From Candidatus Electrothrix yaqonensis (GTDB taxonomy: Bacteria; Desulfobacterota; Desulfobulbia; Desulfobulbales; Desulfobulbaceae), in contig CP178758.1 in assembly GCA_047651235.1 (NCBI GenBank), forward strand, positions 1,620,001 to 1,652,000: 32,000 bases of DNA. The letters run 5' to 3'. This document shows, in pieces, positions 27,932 to 32,000 of the stretch (the stretch's first letter is position 1; every line of letters begins with the position of its first letter). Below the pieces are notes generated by a model that ran no database searches, was not told the origin of the DNA, and worked only from the letters and a program-made list of their open reading frames with translations. A program made the translations under genes and the position numbers.

Positions 27932-28135
27932 TCATTCCGTCATCAGCAGAAGATCGTCATCTGGCAAAGGTGTTGCAGCTGTCCATGTCGTAATCACCGT
28001 GCCTTTAAAGCCGAGCAGCTTCACCGCTGCGGGCAGCAGGTTCAACATGGTGCCCCCGCCGCCGGAGCTACCGGAAAATTCCGTGCCGCGCTGATCTTCA
28101 ACATTATCGCTTTTCCGTCTTCCTTCCCAATCCAT
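27932..28135 (-). pseudogene. truncated N-terminal remnant of a YpfJ-family (putative neutral zinc metallopeptidase) gene
   Basis: MDWEGRRKSDNVEDQRG...GSSGGGG matches the very conserved YpfJ N-terminus (M.W.GRR.S.NVED.R). The SD AAGGAGG is intact, but the ORF ends after 67 aa where about 290 are expected. Confidence 0.55.
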
Positions 28136-28381
28136 AGCAGCCTCCTTCAGTGCTGTTGAGAAATTTTCACCTGCAGACAATGCCGTAAGTGATGATGGGT
28201 TCCATCGTCCTGCTTTTTCTCTGTTCTTCTTTACAAAAAAAGTGAGAAGAGAAAAATACCATTGCAGCAGACAAAAGACAACGCATTTACCCAGTCACTC
28301 CCCCATGACAGCACCTTCCGCTGAACGTATCTCAAGGCCATGATACGCATGAACACCATTTTATTCAGTATGCCGCCCGCC

Positions 28382-28510: not shown

Positions 28511-29968
28511 ATGAATAGAAAATCCCCTTTCCGGCCCTTCCGCCATTATTGTTTCCTACCGGTTTTTTTTCTTCTTTTGGCCGGTTGCTCGGCGGTCGGG
28601 CCGGATTATCACAAGCCGGAATTGCCCCCGGTTAAACAGTGGCACTCCCCTCTGCTGAAAGGGCTGCAGGCGGAACAGGTTGATCCGCAGGAGCTGGCAT
28701 CATGGTGGGAGGTGCTGCGGGATAAGCAGCTCTCCGATTTGATGCAGCGGGCCGTGAGCGGAAATTTTGATCTGCAAACCGCAGTGGAACGGGTGGAGCA
28801 GGCCCGTCTGCAGCGGGGTATCATGGAGGCGGAGCAGTTGCCTTCCTTAGATGCTTCGGGCAGTGCTGCCTGGAGACGTGACGGGGAGAACGACAGTTCC
28901 GGCGAAAGCTACGGCCTCAGCTTGGATGCAGGCTGGGAGGCCGACCTGTTCGGCAGTGTCCGTCGTTCCCTTGAGGCGGCGGAAGCTGATCTGCAGACCA
29001 GCCGGGAGAACCTGCGGGATGTGCTGGTCTCCCTAGTGGCTGAGGTTGCGCTGAACTATGTTGAACTGCGCAGTTCCCAGGTGCAGCTGGCCAATGTACG
29101 CAAAAGCCTGGCCATGCAGCGCGAAACCTGGCAGCTGGTCAAGTGGCAGGTCGAAGCCGGGCTGGACGATGAACTGGCCCTGCATCAGGCTCAATATAAT
29201 CTGGAAAGCTCAGAGGCTCAGATTCCCGCGCTGGAGACCTCCCTTGCGGCCTCCATGAACCGGCTGGCTGTGCTGCTTGGTGAGCAGCCGGGTAGCCTGC
29301 ATAAGAAACTTGAGGCGGCACAACTCATTCCCCTGATTCCGACAACCGTGGCTGTCGGGCTGCCTGCCGATGCCATCCGGCGACGACCGGATATCCGCAA
29401 GGCGGAAAGCGAGCTGGTCGCTCAGACCGCACGGGTCGGGGTGGCCACGGCAGAGCTGTACCCGAAACTGCGCCTGAGCGGGGTCATCGGCATCAACGGC
29501 CTGTCGGTTGCCCGTTTTGCGGAGAACCTGTTCAGTCCTTCCTTCTGGGCAGAACAGGCAGGACTCAGCGCTTCCTGGAATATTTTTGATGCCGAAGCAA
29601 TTCGAAAGAATATCCAGGTTCAAAGCTCGCAGCAGCAACAGGCCCTGATTCAGTACGAAGCCGCAGTGCTGGCGGCAATGGAAGAAATCGAAAATGCCCT
29701 GACTGCTTACGTGAATGAACAGAGCAGAAGAGATGCGCTGGCCAGGGCGGTGAAAGAAGCGGAACAGGCCGTTCAGCTGGCCGAGAATAAATACAAAGCC
29801 GGGCTGATCGATTTCACCACCGTGCTGGACACCCAGCGGACTCTGCTTTCCTTTACCAATCAGTTAGCAGGCAGTGAGGGAAACATGGCGGCCAATCTTA
29901 TCCGTCTGTACAAGGCTTTGGGTGGCGGCTGGCCGTGCTGCCCGGAGGATACCGCCCATGCCTCTTGA
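28511..29968 (+). CDS. efflux transporter outer-membrane factor lipoprotein, NodT family
   Basis: The lipobox is LLAGCSAVGPDYHKPELP, the canonical NodT/OprM N-terminus. The C-terminus is LYKALGGGW and the length is 485 aa. Confidence 0.9.
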   Translation: MNRKSPFRPFRHYCFLPVFFLLLAGCSAVGPDYHKPELPPVKQWHSPLLKGLQAEQVDPQELASWWEVLRDKQLSDLMQRAVSGNFDLQTAVERVEQARLQRGIMEAEQLPSLDASGSAAWRRDGENDSSGESYGLSLDAGWEADLFGSVRRSLEAAEADLQTSRENLRDVLVSLVAEVALNYVELRSSQVQLANVRKSLAMQRETWQLVKWQVEAGLDDELALHQAQYNLESSEAQIPALETSLAASMNRLAVLLGEQPGSLHKKLEAAQLIPLIPTTVAVGLPADAIRRRPDIRKAESELVAQTARVGVATAELYPKLRLSGVIGINGLSVARFAENLFSPSFWAEQAGLSASWNIFDAEAIRKNIQVQSSQQQQALIQYEAAVLAAMEEIENALTAYVNEQSRRDALARAVKEAEQAVQLAENKYKAGLIDFTTVLDTQRTLLSFTNQLAGSEGNMAANLIRLYKALGGGWPCCPEDTAHAS

Positions 29969-30017
29969 ACTCCGCCTTACCGTTCCTGATTCCTTCCGAT
30001 TCATATTGCTGTTTCCC

Positions 30018-30046
30018 TTGGGTAATACACCCTGTTCTGGTATAAT
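30018..30046 (+). promoter_or_regulatory. sigma70 promoter with extended -10 for the small membrane-protein gene
   Basis: TTGGGT (30018-30023), a 17-nt spacer and TGgTATAAT (30038-30046), about 65 nt upstream of ATG 30113. Confidence 0.45.
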
Positions 30047-30112
30047 TTGGCGCAGTTCTTTTAGAGATTGCAGCCCGAAAGATACATTCCCTTTTCCCAA
30101 GAGGAAACCATT

Positions 30113-30535
30113 ATGCCCGCACCCTTTACCCCGGAACAGCTGGAAGACCTTTCTCTGAACATAGACGAGCAGCTTGACGAGCTGCGGAACAGCCCATCCC
30201 CGTACAGCGGGACCAAGGCCAGCAAGGAATCCAAGGAGCTTCCTGATCGCACCCCCAAGCAGTGGCAGGCCATTGCCGAGGTGACCGAGGAAGAGCCGCA
30301 GACCTTCTGGCAGCGCTTTAAGCTGGCTGCCCATAAAGATCTCTGTGAGGAAGGCGGGGTGCTCCATGACCAATGGCAGAAATGGGGCGACCTGCGTAAG
30401 GAGTCCGTGCTCAAGTCCTTCGGGGCAATTCTGGTGGCAATGGGCTTTTCCGGTAATGCCCTGCAGGTGCTGGCCGTGGCCGTAGCAGTGATCGTCATGC
30501 ACATAGGCTGCACCGCCATCTGCGCGGAGGACTGA
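30113..30535 (+). CDS. hypothetical small protein: acidic soluble N-terminal part plus C-terminal hydrophobic hairpin
   Basis: SD AAGAGGAAA precedes ATG 30113. The C-terminus VLKSFGAILVAMGFSGNALQVLAVAVAVIVMHIGCTAI forms two hydrophobic segments. The gene ends 2 nt before the next ORF. Confidence 0.55.
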   Translation: MPAPFTPEQLEDLSLNIDEQLDELRNSPSPYSGTKASKESKELPDRTPKQWQAIAEVTEEEPQTFWQRFKLAAHKDLCEEGGVLHDQWQKWGDLRKESVLKSFGAILVAMGFSGNALQVLAVAVAVIVMHIGCTAICAED

Positions 30536-30537
30536 CC

Positions 30538-31476
30538 ATGTCCATAGAATTACGCCTGACCTTCACCGATGCTACCCACGTCATGGTTTCCCTGCTCGGA
30601 GCCAACCCGGATGCCTCTCCGCCTGCCGAGTTCACGAGTCCCCTCAAGGAAGCCGACCTGAACGAACTGCGCTGGTACCTGGAGGACTACGGCACCAGCT
30701 ATGCTGCTGAACCGGATGATGCCCGGGCCAAGGCAGTCGAGGAGCTGGAGCTGAAAAATCCCTACAACCTTGCCGACTATCAGTCCGGCAAGCTCGCAAT
30801 TCTTGACATCAAGGCCAGGGACTCCAACGGACGCTGGATCAACGTGGAGATGCAGATGACCGAGGACCGGAATTTCGATAAACGGGCCATCTACTACTGG
30901 GCCGGGATACTGACCAGGCAGCTTGCCGAGGGCAGTATCTACGAGGAGCTGACCAAGACGATCAGCATCAATATCCTGGACTTCAACTTTGTGCCGGACG
31001 CGGATCGGTTCCACAACCGCTACAAGATCATCAACGTGGATACTCTGAAAGAGGACAGCCTGCATGACATCTTTGAACTGCACTACGTGGAGCTGAAGAA
31101 ATTCCGCAAGCAGTTCCATGAACTCGCGGCTCCGCTCGACCGCTGGGCCGCCTTTCTGTCCCGTGCAGGGGAGCTGGACAAGGAAAAACTTCCCCCGACC
31201 ATTGCCTGCGACCCGGCCCTGGTCAGGGCCGTCATGGCTGTGGACCGGCTGTTCGACGAAGACGAGCGCGAGATCTACGAAGCGCGCAGGCAGGCTATCA
31301 TTGATCAGGAGAGCAAAATCGCCTCTGCCCTGAAAGCGGGGATGGAGCAAGGTATGGAAAAGGGCATCCTCCAGGTTGCCCGGAACCTTCTTGATATTCT
31401 GGATGACGCCGGAATTGCCGAGAAAACAGGTTTGTCTCTTTCTGCTGTGCAGAAGTTGCGGCAAGGAAAGATATAA
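30538..31476 (+). CDS. chimeric ORF: ~66-aa N-terminal fragment of a STAND/TPR/CHAT-type protein fused in frame to an N-terminally truncated Rpn-family PD-(D/E)XK recombination-promoting nuclease/putative transposase
   Basis: From aa ~70 onward, LKNPYNLADYQSGKLAILDIKARDSNGRWINVEMQMTEDRNFDKRAIYYW...ISINILDF...FELHYVELKKF is a typical Rpn/YhgA-like core, with D...E.Q present. The usual ~45-aa N-terminus is absent. It is replaced by MSIELRLTF...FTSPLKEADLNELRWYLEDY...DDARAKAVEE. Confidence 0.65.
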   Translation: MSIELRLTFTDATHVMVSLLGANPDASPPAEFTSPLKEADLNELRWYLEDYGTSYAAEPDDARAKAVEELELKNPYNLADYQSGKLAILDIKARDSNGRWINVEMQMTEDRNFDKRAIYYWAGILTRQLAEGSIYEELTKTISINILDFNFVPDADRFHNRYKIINVDTLKEDSLHDIFELHYVELKKFRKQFHELAAPLDRWAAFLSRAGELDKEKLPPTIACDPALVRAVMAVDRLFDEDEREIYEARRQAIIDQESKIASALKAGMEQGMEKGILQVARNLLDILDDAGIAEKTGLSLSAVQKLRQGKI

Positions 31477-32000
31477 TGGAAAGACCTACAGAGCAGGCGG
31501 ACATTGCCGCCGTCCTGCAGTCATCGCAGAAGAAAGGCGGCAAGTGCAGGCTGTGCCTGCTGGTTCTGGTGCTCTGCTGTGCTGGCGGGGCATTCTTTTA
31601 TTTTCAGCAGAAGCAACCGGAAGGCGGCGGCCCGGAGATGAGCTTTACCACAGAACCGGTTACCATTGACAATCTGGTCGTTACCGTGACCGCTACCGGC
31701 ACCTTGGAGCCGACCAACAAGGTGGATGTGGGCAGCGAACTGTCTGGAAAGGTTGAAGCGGTGATGGCGGATTTTAATGATCAGGTGACCGAGGGGCAGG
31801 TGCTGGCCCGGCTGGATGTGTCCAAGCTCAAGGCCCAGGTCAAGCAGACCGAGGCATCGCTGCAGGCGGCCAAGGCCAGGGTGCTGCAGGCCGAAGCCAC
31901 TATCGAGGAGACCGGCAGTAAACTCAGGCAGCTGCAAAAGGTCTACAAACTCAGCAACGGCAAGATGCCTTCCCGGACAGATATGGACGCGGCCAAGGCT
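31476..32000 (+). CDS. efflux periplasmic adaptor (HlyD/MacA-type membrane fusion protein); the 3' end lies outside the window
   Basis: This ORF is not in the track because it runs off the window. ATG 31476 overlaps the previous stop (TAATG). A TM anchor (CRLCLLVLVLCCAGGAFFYF) is followed by VVTVTATGTLEPTNKVDVGSELSGKVEAV...V.EGQVLARLD and a coiled coil, typical of MacA/HlyD adaptors. Confidence 0.8.
   Translation, partial: MERPTEQADIAAVLQSSQKKGGKCRLCLLVLVLCCAGGAFFYFQQKQPEGGGPEMSFTTEPVTIDNLVVTVTATGTLEPTNKVDVGSELSGKVEAVMADFNDQVTEGQVLARLDVSKLKAQVKQTEASLQAAKARVLQAEATIEETGSKLRQLQKVYKLSNGKMPSRTDMDAAKA

Follow-up and report, generated by a model that had tools for sequence, protein, structure and literature searches.

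An in-frame fusion of a CHAT-type gene start to a truncated Rpn-family nuclease gene in the efflux operon of a cable bacterium

Open reading frame (ORF) 30538-31476, on the forward strand of the 32,000-nucleotide (nt) stretch of DNA analyzed here (the window), encodes a 312-residue protein of the cable bacterium Candidatus Electrothrix sp. YB6 whose database entry, XOF35171.1, names it as an ordinary "Rpn family recombination-promoting nuclease". Profile matches and comparison with orthologues confirm that this ORF is an in-frame chimera, in which codons 1-69 of a CHAT-type gene are followed by an N-terminally truncated Rpn-family nuclease, as a first-pass annotation of the DNA had proposed when it described a STAND/TPR/CHAT-type N terminus joined to a truncated Rpn. 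We think it probable that the fusion is specific to its lineage, was made by a deletion between neighboring co-oriented genes, and is most likely a nuclease-dead relic.

The N-terminal part, here called stub B (30538-30745, forward strand), corresponds to codons 1-69 of a gene that encodes an N-terminal module (N-module), a CHAT domain, a NACHT-like NTPase, and a TPR array. At the nucleotide level it matches positions 2255-2464 of contig L010, the start of a gene for a 1,336-amino-acid (aa) protein at the same locus in Electrothrix sp. GW3-4, with 79.8% identity that ends at 30745, and in translation it is 78-83% identical to five CHAT-gene orthologues. When the two halves of the chimera are searched separately, the Rpn half matches curated families (see below) whereas residues 1-66 have no match in Pfam, NCBIfam, or PADLOC; these residues are nevertheless 78-84% identical to the N termini of proteins that run on into CHAT, NACHT-like NTPase, and TPR regions. 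Full-length relatives of 1,179-1,336 aa, encoded on contigs L006 (Electronema), L009 (protein P0124), and L010, share the domain order N-module, CHAT, NACHT-like NTPase, TPR and bear out the earlier assignment of this segment; a lack of resemblance to STAND/TPR/CHAT N termini was looked for and not seen. On contig L001 the module leads, past a frameshift, into a CHAT domain (PF12770, E = 3e-28). Among 5.8 billion protein clusters, residues 1-71 retrieve only three fragments, all 83-84% identical and one of them from an Electrothrix metagenome-assembled genome (MAG), and after "...EPDDARA.AV.E" these fragments read "...LPLWGTALF..." rather than "LELKNPYN". Searched with a profile of the module, 1.84 billion representatives yield 315 proteins at E ≤ 1e-3; the module is N-terminal in nearly all of the matches listed, and full-length members measure about 1,200-1,500 aa. 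In a Pfam scan of five module members of 310-322 aa, four have a partial CHAT domain, one has no match, and none has Rpn/PDDEXK_2.

The chimera keeps 69 of the module's approximately 105 residues and little else of its CHAT parent: no CHAT domain is matched in the ORF by Pfam, while L001, L004, L006, L010, and P0124 have one, and the STAND/NACHT-like NTPase and TPR array are absent from the ORF and, by tblastn, from the whole window. The parent gene resembles the caspase-like (CHAT)/STAND NTPase/TPR conflict proteins that Kaur et al. (2020, PMC7159879) described in multicellular bacteria, both in its N-module/CHAT/NACHT-like/TPR layout and in its hosts, which are filamentous multicellular bacteria (cable bacteria, cyanobacteria, Chloroflexota); unlike those proteins, the window lacks every enzymatic and sensor domain and retains N-module residues only. 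The N-module is not equated with any named effector-associated domain and has no model in Pfam, NCBIfam, or PADLOC, and the full-length parent proteins match only generic CHAT/TPR pieces in PADLOC and NCBIfam, with no named defense system. The N-module/CHAT subfamily, its N-module, and a 140-aa partner protein encoded upstream thus lie outside all the curated models scanned in these three collections. The parent system is decaying elsewhere too, through the frameshift in L001, an internal deletion in L005, a truncation in L007, and loss of the partner gene in L006 and GW3-4. The large gene at L005 10001-11855 lacks residues ~200-878, with N-module and early CHAT joined to TPR; the one at L001 264-1375 is frameshifted near residue 105 and has the CHAT motif HFDGRG, compared to HFDGHG in P0124.

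The remainder of the chimera, delimited by profiles and a homologue alignment (30746-31476, forward strand), is an Rpn-family (PDDEXK_2) gene from about its codon 39 to its natural stop. Two curated profiles match the protein from residues 65/67 onward and score far above their cut-offs: PF12784 (PDDEXK_2; E = 5e-51) aligns over positions 33-229 of 229 with 174 bits where 27.4 are required, and TIGR01784 (Rpn family; E = 2e-41) over positions 33-272 of 273 with 142.5 bits where 52.1 are required. Both matches begin at profile position 33, leaving ~32 N-terminal profile positions missing, and when 112 intact homologues are aligned the loss comes to ~38 residues; the truncation noticed by the first-pass annotation is real, but its size had been set somewhat too high, at ~45 residues. 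Residues 67-312 share with PF12784/TIGR01784 members the core, nearly all of the conserved core residues, and the complete C-terminal tail, whereas the ~38 N-terminal residues of those members, predicted to form two helices, are replaced in the chimera by 69 unrelated ones. The D...E.Q core that had been read from the sequence is present: D90, E104, and Q106 (30805-30807, 30847-30849, and 30853-30855) align with D62, E76, and Q78, which are invariant in the 112 homologues, and the C-terminal region and tail are complete, the tail aligning with that of homologues. What is wholly missing is the block MC.INP.VDFAFKKLFGSEENKDLL..L.N.I (profile positions 1-32). The intact N terminus reads MCRINPRVDFAFKKLFGSEENKDLL..., and intact homologues start "MCRINPRVDFAFKKLFGSEENKDLLISLINAI..(Q)VEDLELKNPYNLADY...", where the chimera instead has "...DDARAKAVEELELKNPYNLADY...". 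Residues 1-32 form the most conserved block of the 112 homologues, and 14 of their positions (C2, P6, D9, A11, F12, K13, K14, L15, F16, G17, N21, D23, L25, and N30) are 100% conserved.

The point at which the two parents meet can be narrowed by aligning the DNA to six CHAT loci and comparing its codons with those of the gene for P0005, the nearest intact Rpn relative. Similarity to the six CHAT orthologues runs from the ATG to ~30745 (GCAGTCGAGGAGC) and then ends; at the junction the sequence is GT(G/A)CAGGAGC(G/A)G in the orthologues and GTTGAAGATTTG in the nearest intact Rpn. The P0005 gene has …CAG GTT GAA GAT TTG GAG TTA AAG AAT CCC…, and the chimeric residues V-E-E-L-E-L-K-N could accordingly all be Rpn-derived. 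Because the CHAT similarity reaches ~30745 and these residues could come from the Rpn side, the crossover falls within 30736-30747 (GTCGAGGAGCTG), a zone to which both parents plausibly contributed and which lies inside the earlier estimate of about 30736-30756. The tandem hexamer GAGCTGGAGCTG, proposed earlier as a microhomology footprint, does exist, but its E-L-E-L is encoded by mostly native Rpn codons. We also rejected the hexamer as a duplication scar, because "(D/E)LELKNPYN" is conserved in, and native to, intact Rpn homologues. At most, AGGAGC and its surroundings (within GT.NAGGAGC) would be the sole plausible microhomology with the CHAT parent.

The combination of CHAT module and Rpn is found in no other protein among the 5.8 billion clusters, where the only full-coverage match to the chimera is the identical protein and the next best has 65% identity over 79% coverage; among the 315 module-bearing cluster representatives, none has Rpn/PDDEXK_2 fused to the N-module. 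A widespread occurrence of the architecture was looked for, and what emerged is a singleton. Two assemblies carry the identical protein: in an NCBI MAG it lies on a 3.74 Mb contig (XOF35171.1), and it is also encoded on the 32.6 kb Logan contig of run SRR31704081 to which the window corresponds. Its translation signals (30526-30540, forward strand, read from the sequence) are inherited from the CHAT gene: a Shine-Dalgarno (SD)-like GGAGGA at 30526-30531 ends six bases before the chimera's ATG (30538-30540), the stop codon of the 140-aa gene (30533-30535) lies two bases before that ATG, and the CHAT-gene orthologues have the same GGAGG-N-ATG arrangement. Given the inherited CHAT-gene ATG, SD, and tight coupling to the 140-aa gene, the chimera is probably still translated. 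The first-pass view that it uses the large gene's start codon, SD, and upstream partner holds up, as the ATG, the GGAGGA, and the conserved 140-aa gene all come from that source.

How the fusion came about is suggested by the same locus in other Electrothrix genomes. On its left stands a gene for an outer-membrane efflux factor (OMF/OEP; 28511-29968, forward strand, PF02321), 76-82% identical to those of L010, L012, and L014; homology to genomes in which the site is empty ends at ~29962, and beyond "...ATGC" the sequences of a four-genome alignment part into insertion and empty-site versions. On its right begins a gene for a MacA-type periplasmic adaptor (MFP; 31476-32000, forward strand), identified by Pfam, orthologues, and a five-genome alignment of starts, whose ATG overlaps the TAA of the chimera (TAATG). 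The empty site, seen in Electrothrix scaldis, Electrothrix communis, and Electrothrix aarhusensis, is an overlap of the OMF stop with the MFP start. In GW3-4 the same site holds, in order, a degraded copy of a short CHAT-type start (stub A, see below), a block with a TGgTATAAT element, a 19-codon relic of the 140-aa gene, repeats, the intact 1,336-aa CHAT/TPR gene, a 730-nt spacer, and the MFP gene. Three blocks of the window, 28586-30046, 30536-30745, and 31480-31987, are collinear with L010, the DNA between them does not align, and the second block stops at the junction. The closest MFP (86%) is that of L016 and L017, which come from two independent ENA assemblies (ERZ650200 and ERZ27294448) and have the 3' end of a CHAT/TPR gene (82% nt identity to GW3-4), a ~250-nt spacer, the last 32 Rpn codons (94% aa identity), and the MFP gene. 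From 31379 across the junction of Rpn stop and MFP start they match the window without a break at 85% identity, with the last 98 nt of Rpn shared. An equally close MFP on L011 is preceded by a metallophosphoesterase-like gene and is uninformative for the locus.

We propose the following history. In an ancestor of YB6 and GW3-4, the comparison shows, a two-gene conflict-type cassette became lodged in a MacAB-type efflux operon, at the point where its OMF and MFP genes overlap; it was made up of a gene for the 140-aa membrane protein and one for a ~1,200-1,340-aa protein with N-module, CHAT protease, NACHT-like, and TPR regions. In the lineage leading to YB6 and L016, to judge from the junction that they share, an Rpn gene would have come to lie between the CHAT gene and the MFP gene, its stop abutting the MFP start. 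The CHAT 3' end and the Rpn remnant of L016/L017, at the same Rpn/MFP junction, imply that Rpn was already the downstream neighbor; YB6 has more of Rpn and L016 has the CHAT 3' end, so neither arrangement derives from the other and the ancestor would have had the order CHAT–spacer–Rpn–MFP. In YB6, where the junction itself can be read, a deletion of roughly 4 kb would then have removed the CHAT gene from codon 70 to its end, the spacer, and the first ~38 Rpn codons, and the ends were probably joined at the AGGAGC microhomology, in frame by chance, an accident with a one-in-three chance. Empty site, intact cassette minus partner gene, Rpn remnant, and fusion form a series that is unusually complete. 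Like other fusion ORFs and pseudogenes made by deletion, the chimera has both parents truncated, a join at a short microhomology, a singleton architecture, and sister lineages with alternative deletions; unlike most such relics, it is in frame with good translation signals and has for that reason been annotated as an ordinary Rpn protein.

That the nuclease is probably dead follows from the loss of the family's invariant N-terminal block, including the probable counterpart of a residue essential in Escherichia coli RpnA. The E. coli proteins RpnA-E (YhgA-like; PF04754, Transposase_31) are recombination-promoting nucleases that act in phage defense as toxins with intragenic antitoxins (PMC5350276, PMC10400941), and in RpnA the substitution D11A, in "PHD11ALFKLF", abolishes recombination, toxicity, and SOS induction, as core mutations do (PMC5350276). 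The family motif "PKVD9FAFKKLF" and the PHD11ALFKLF of RpnA are spaced almost equally from the core Asp, and the missing N terminus probably carries, in D9, the counterpart of D11, a motif match made by eye only. RpnA and the family here have in common a PD-(D/E)XK layout with N-terminal D-x-x-F-K, core D, and E-x-Q at similar spacing, and their C-terminal tails are weakly similar. Their Pfam families differ: the chimera and P0005 match PF12784 only and give no match to PF04754 even at E up to 1-10, whereas RpnA matches PF04754 only (E = 1.6e-91). All Rpn experiments, and with them the known DNA endonuclease and recombination-promoting activity, concern E. coli PF04754 proteins, none the subfamily at hand, and the chimera lacks the probable D11 counterpart. 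A PDB sequence search with an intact Rpn homologue returned nothing, and a Foldseek search of the intact-homologue AlphaFold model against the PDB returned nothing significant, the best PD-(D/E)XK hint being EndoMS (E = 0.1). AlphaFold models intact P0005 with pLDDT 79 and pTM 0.67, its N-terminal helices (residues 6-16 and 19-32) reaching pLDDT 80-93, and the chimera with pLDDT 68 and pTM 0.47, its nuclease core at 57-72. Judged by the lost D-x-x-F-K block, the chimera is most likely a nuclease-dead relic, retaining at most the properties of its C-terminal part, which would be RpnS-like; in E. coli the C-terminal region of Rpn is an intragenic antitoxin, RpnS (PMC10400941).

Several observations weigh against a deletion-made, inactive relic. 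We found no genome with both CHAT and Rpn intact at the locus, and no close copy of the parental Rpn: the best homologue in protein databases has 65-68% identity, Rpn relatives in a metagenome scan reach at most 64%, and a second such scan had 0 matches to the Rpn/MFP junction pattern. The two assemblies that carry the chimera may share reads. The Rpn part keeps nearly all conserved residues, and stub B has diverged no faster than intact orthologues (distance to the Electronema outgroup, 0.275, as against 0.25-0.32), both of which fit a recent event and continued selection equally well; by these two decay tests the chimera is not set apart from its intact relatives. At 118 conserved Rpn columns it deviates at 14 and P0005 at 13, which points to a lineage trait, not to evident decay. 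When the Rpn-family alignment is compared to RpnA by hhalign, the D9/D11 region stays unaligned and only a weak C-terminal match results (probability 25%), and the confidence of an AlphaFold model is no gauge of stability.

The first-pass annotation had offered a more active role for the nuclease, in which Rpn would have used its own recombination-promoting activity to recombine into the CHAT-type gene and decapitate it, possibly a self-inflicted event. E. coli Rpn proteins do cut DNA nonspecifically and make RecA-independent recombination more frequent (PMC5350276), rpn genes are transferred horizontally though not conventional transposases (PMC10400941), and the short microhomology, at most, at the junction is as in illegitimate joining. 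L016 and L017, however, retain the intact 3' end of a CHAT/TPR gene with the same Rpn gene downstream of it; with Rpn already in that position a deletion suffices, and the proposal that Rpn inserted into the large gene loses its ground. The truncation of the Rpn copy, moreover, falls in its most conserved block, no close and intact copy was detected from which the enzyme might have come (the best is 65% identical), and the self-inflicted event finds no support in a gene that is itself mutilated. We therefore regard this scenario as unlikely: Rpn-driven insertion is not needed, and the data are silent on which enzyme made the break.

No more probable, in our view, is a functional new fusion, with stub and 140-aa partner serving as an adaptor or regulatory head for the nuclease or with the product acting as a nontoxic Rpn-derived regulator or antitoxin. 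The open frame and inherited translation signals are compatible with it, as are the 140-aa gene, intact in YB6 and lost in GW3-4, the absence of excess divergence in either the stub or the Rpn part, and the helices that precede the first core strand in the models of both the intact protein and the chimera; Rpn C-terminal domains are antitoxins in E. coli (PMC10400941). What speaks against function is that the fusion is a singleton among 5.8 billion clusters and 315 module-bearing representatives, has lost the invariant N-terminal Rpn block, and has a predicted core of low confidence, while its frame is only the one-in-three accident mentioned above and the parent system is decaying in several lineages. 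The singleton architecture, the lost block, and the repeated decay lead us to favor a relic over a new function. A broader version, which we hold to be a long shot, would make the N-module and 140-aa partner a portable "head" whose effector bodies are swapped just after "...EPDDxRA", YB6 being a snapshot of a swap from CHAT protease to nuclease. Two independent truncations, after codon 69 in YB6 and after ~codon 59-64 in L007, do fall within about ten codons of each other with the 140-aa gene intact in both; at L007 2069-2290, in a Leptolyngbyales MAG, an intact 154-aa partner homologue is followed by an N-module that is cut at "...DVDDQRS", continues as LILGFLKANRLC to two stops, and precedes an AraC-type gene. 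The closeness of the breakpoints may reflect coincidence or a preferred break site, and the search patterns required residues 40-55, which biases detection. A functional fusion or a preferred swap site, if true, would bear on how modular immune proteins gain new effector domains. Least probable of all is an assembly artefact, a contig joining reads from a CHAT gene and an Rpn gene that lie apart in the cell. The sequence does come from a metagenome assembly, and only the 30745/30746 junction is unique to YB6; against this, the identical protein is encoded both on the 3.74 Mb NCBI contig and on a Logan contig that was built separately, relatives bear out both flanks, and the junction sequence shared by the parents, at most ~10 nt, would be too short to mislead a k-mer assembler.

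The 140-aa partner gene upstream of the chimera (30113-30535, forward strand) is intact, encodes a hydrophobic C-terminal segment, and has no Pfam, NCBIfam, or PADLOC match. Its homologues lie upstream of module genes: full-length copies stand immediately before the large gene in L009 (61% identity) and in the Leptolyngbyales cyanobacterium L007 (43%), and remnants persist in L002, L006, and L010, an association that the first-pass annotation had anticipated. In Electrothrix gigas-type genomes a DUF6398 gene, not the 140-aa partner, precedes the large CHAT gene (L004 9259-9768; L001 1-30), and the pairing is therefore not universal. In GW3-4 the partner is reduced to the 19-codon relic MPSGGVIVMHLGCTAICKE, ended by a stop, which retains the first 2 and last ~15 residues (L010 1985-2044). 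The decay of the cassette is thereby reciprocal: GW3-4 keeps the 1,336-aa gene and loses the 140-aa gene, and YB6 does the opposite. Farther upstream, TGgTATAAT (30038-30046, forward strand), read by eye and conserved between YB6 and GW3-4, resembles an extended -10 element and is a putative promoter; the block TTGTTTCCCTTGGG...CCCTGTTCTGGTATAAT around it is near-identical in the window and L010, and a strict scan of 29800-31700 for a full sigma-70 promoter gave no site. Still farther left, and overlapping the OMF stop, tblastn and blastn reveal stub A, a possible 11-codon CHAT-type gene start (MPLELRLTVPD; 29958-29990, forward strand) that matches P0124 residues 1-11 at 10/11 positions (tblastn) and the L009 gene start at 87% over 31 nt (blastn). 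A degraded copy, MPHEHRLICPD, occupies the same place in GW3-4 (L010 1835-1867), which makes stub A part of the inserted DNA common to both. With 21-26 of 33 nt matching the starts of all CHAT-type genes, its subtype is not distinguished, and it is a modestly supported possibility that stub A is the remnant of another CHAT-type family gene start. It may stem from a gene that resided there earlier or from a duplication in the course of insertion. The ATGC common to the OMF 3' end and stub A may be a microhomology at the left junction.

Other features of these neighborhoods deserve mention. GC-rich palindromic repeats of the form GTAGGGGC(N)nGCCCCTAC (e.g., GGGCGAACACGGGGATTCGCCCCTAC and GGGCACGGCACGCCGTGCCCCTAC), sometimes in tandem, occupy spacers around CHAT genes in several Electrothrix genomes (L001 120-235; L002 30-60; L010 2050-2250 and 6300-6900; L016 270-400) and resemble a small family of dispersed repeats. 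Electronema sp. PJ has, in the orthologous MacAB operon (L101 7418-8024), a small gene and a PIN-domain gene, toxin-antitoxin-like, between the ABC ATPase and the MacB permease. In E. scaldis, where the OMF/MFP site is empty, a 1,005-aa Peptidase_C14 (caspase)/WD40 protein is encoded ~1 kb upstream of the same OMF (L012 1350-4367), a further conflict protein of caspase type close to the locus. In the window itself, a short ORF of 67-82 aa on the reverse strand (27932-28180), with a weak match to Zn_peptidase (PF04228), lies between the ABC ATPase gene and OMF and may be a gene remnant.

Selfish or defense cassettes seem to have landed repeatedly in the MacAB efflux operon, and the series of loci described here shows a conflict-type cassette inside an efflux operon being dismantled by different deletions in sister lineages. 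The YB6 fusion is a well-documented and biologically ordinary event of gene decay. It is also a cautionary case, in that a hybrid without its family's most conserved block sits in the database as an ordinary Rpn protein, which is relevant to anyone counting or testing Rpn or defense genes in cable bacteria.

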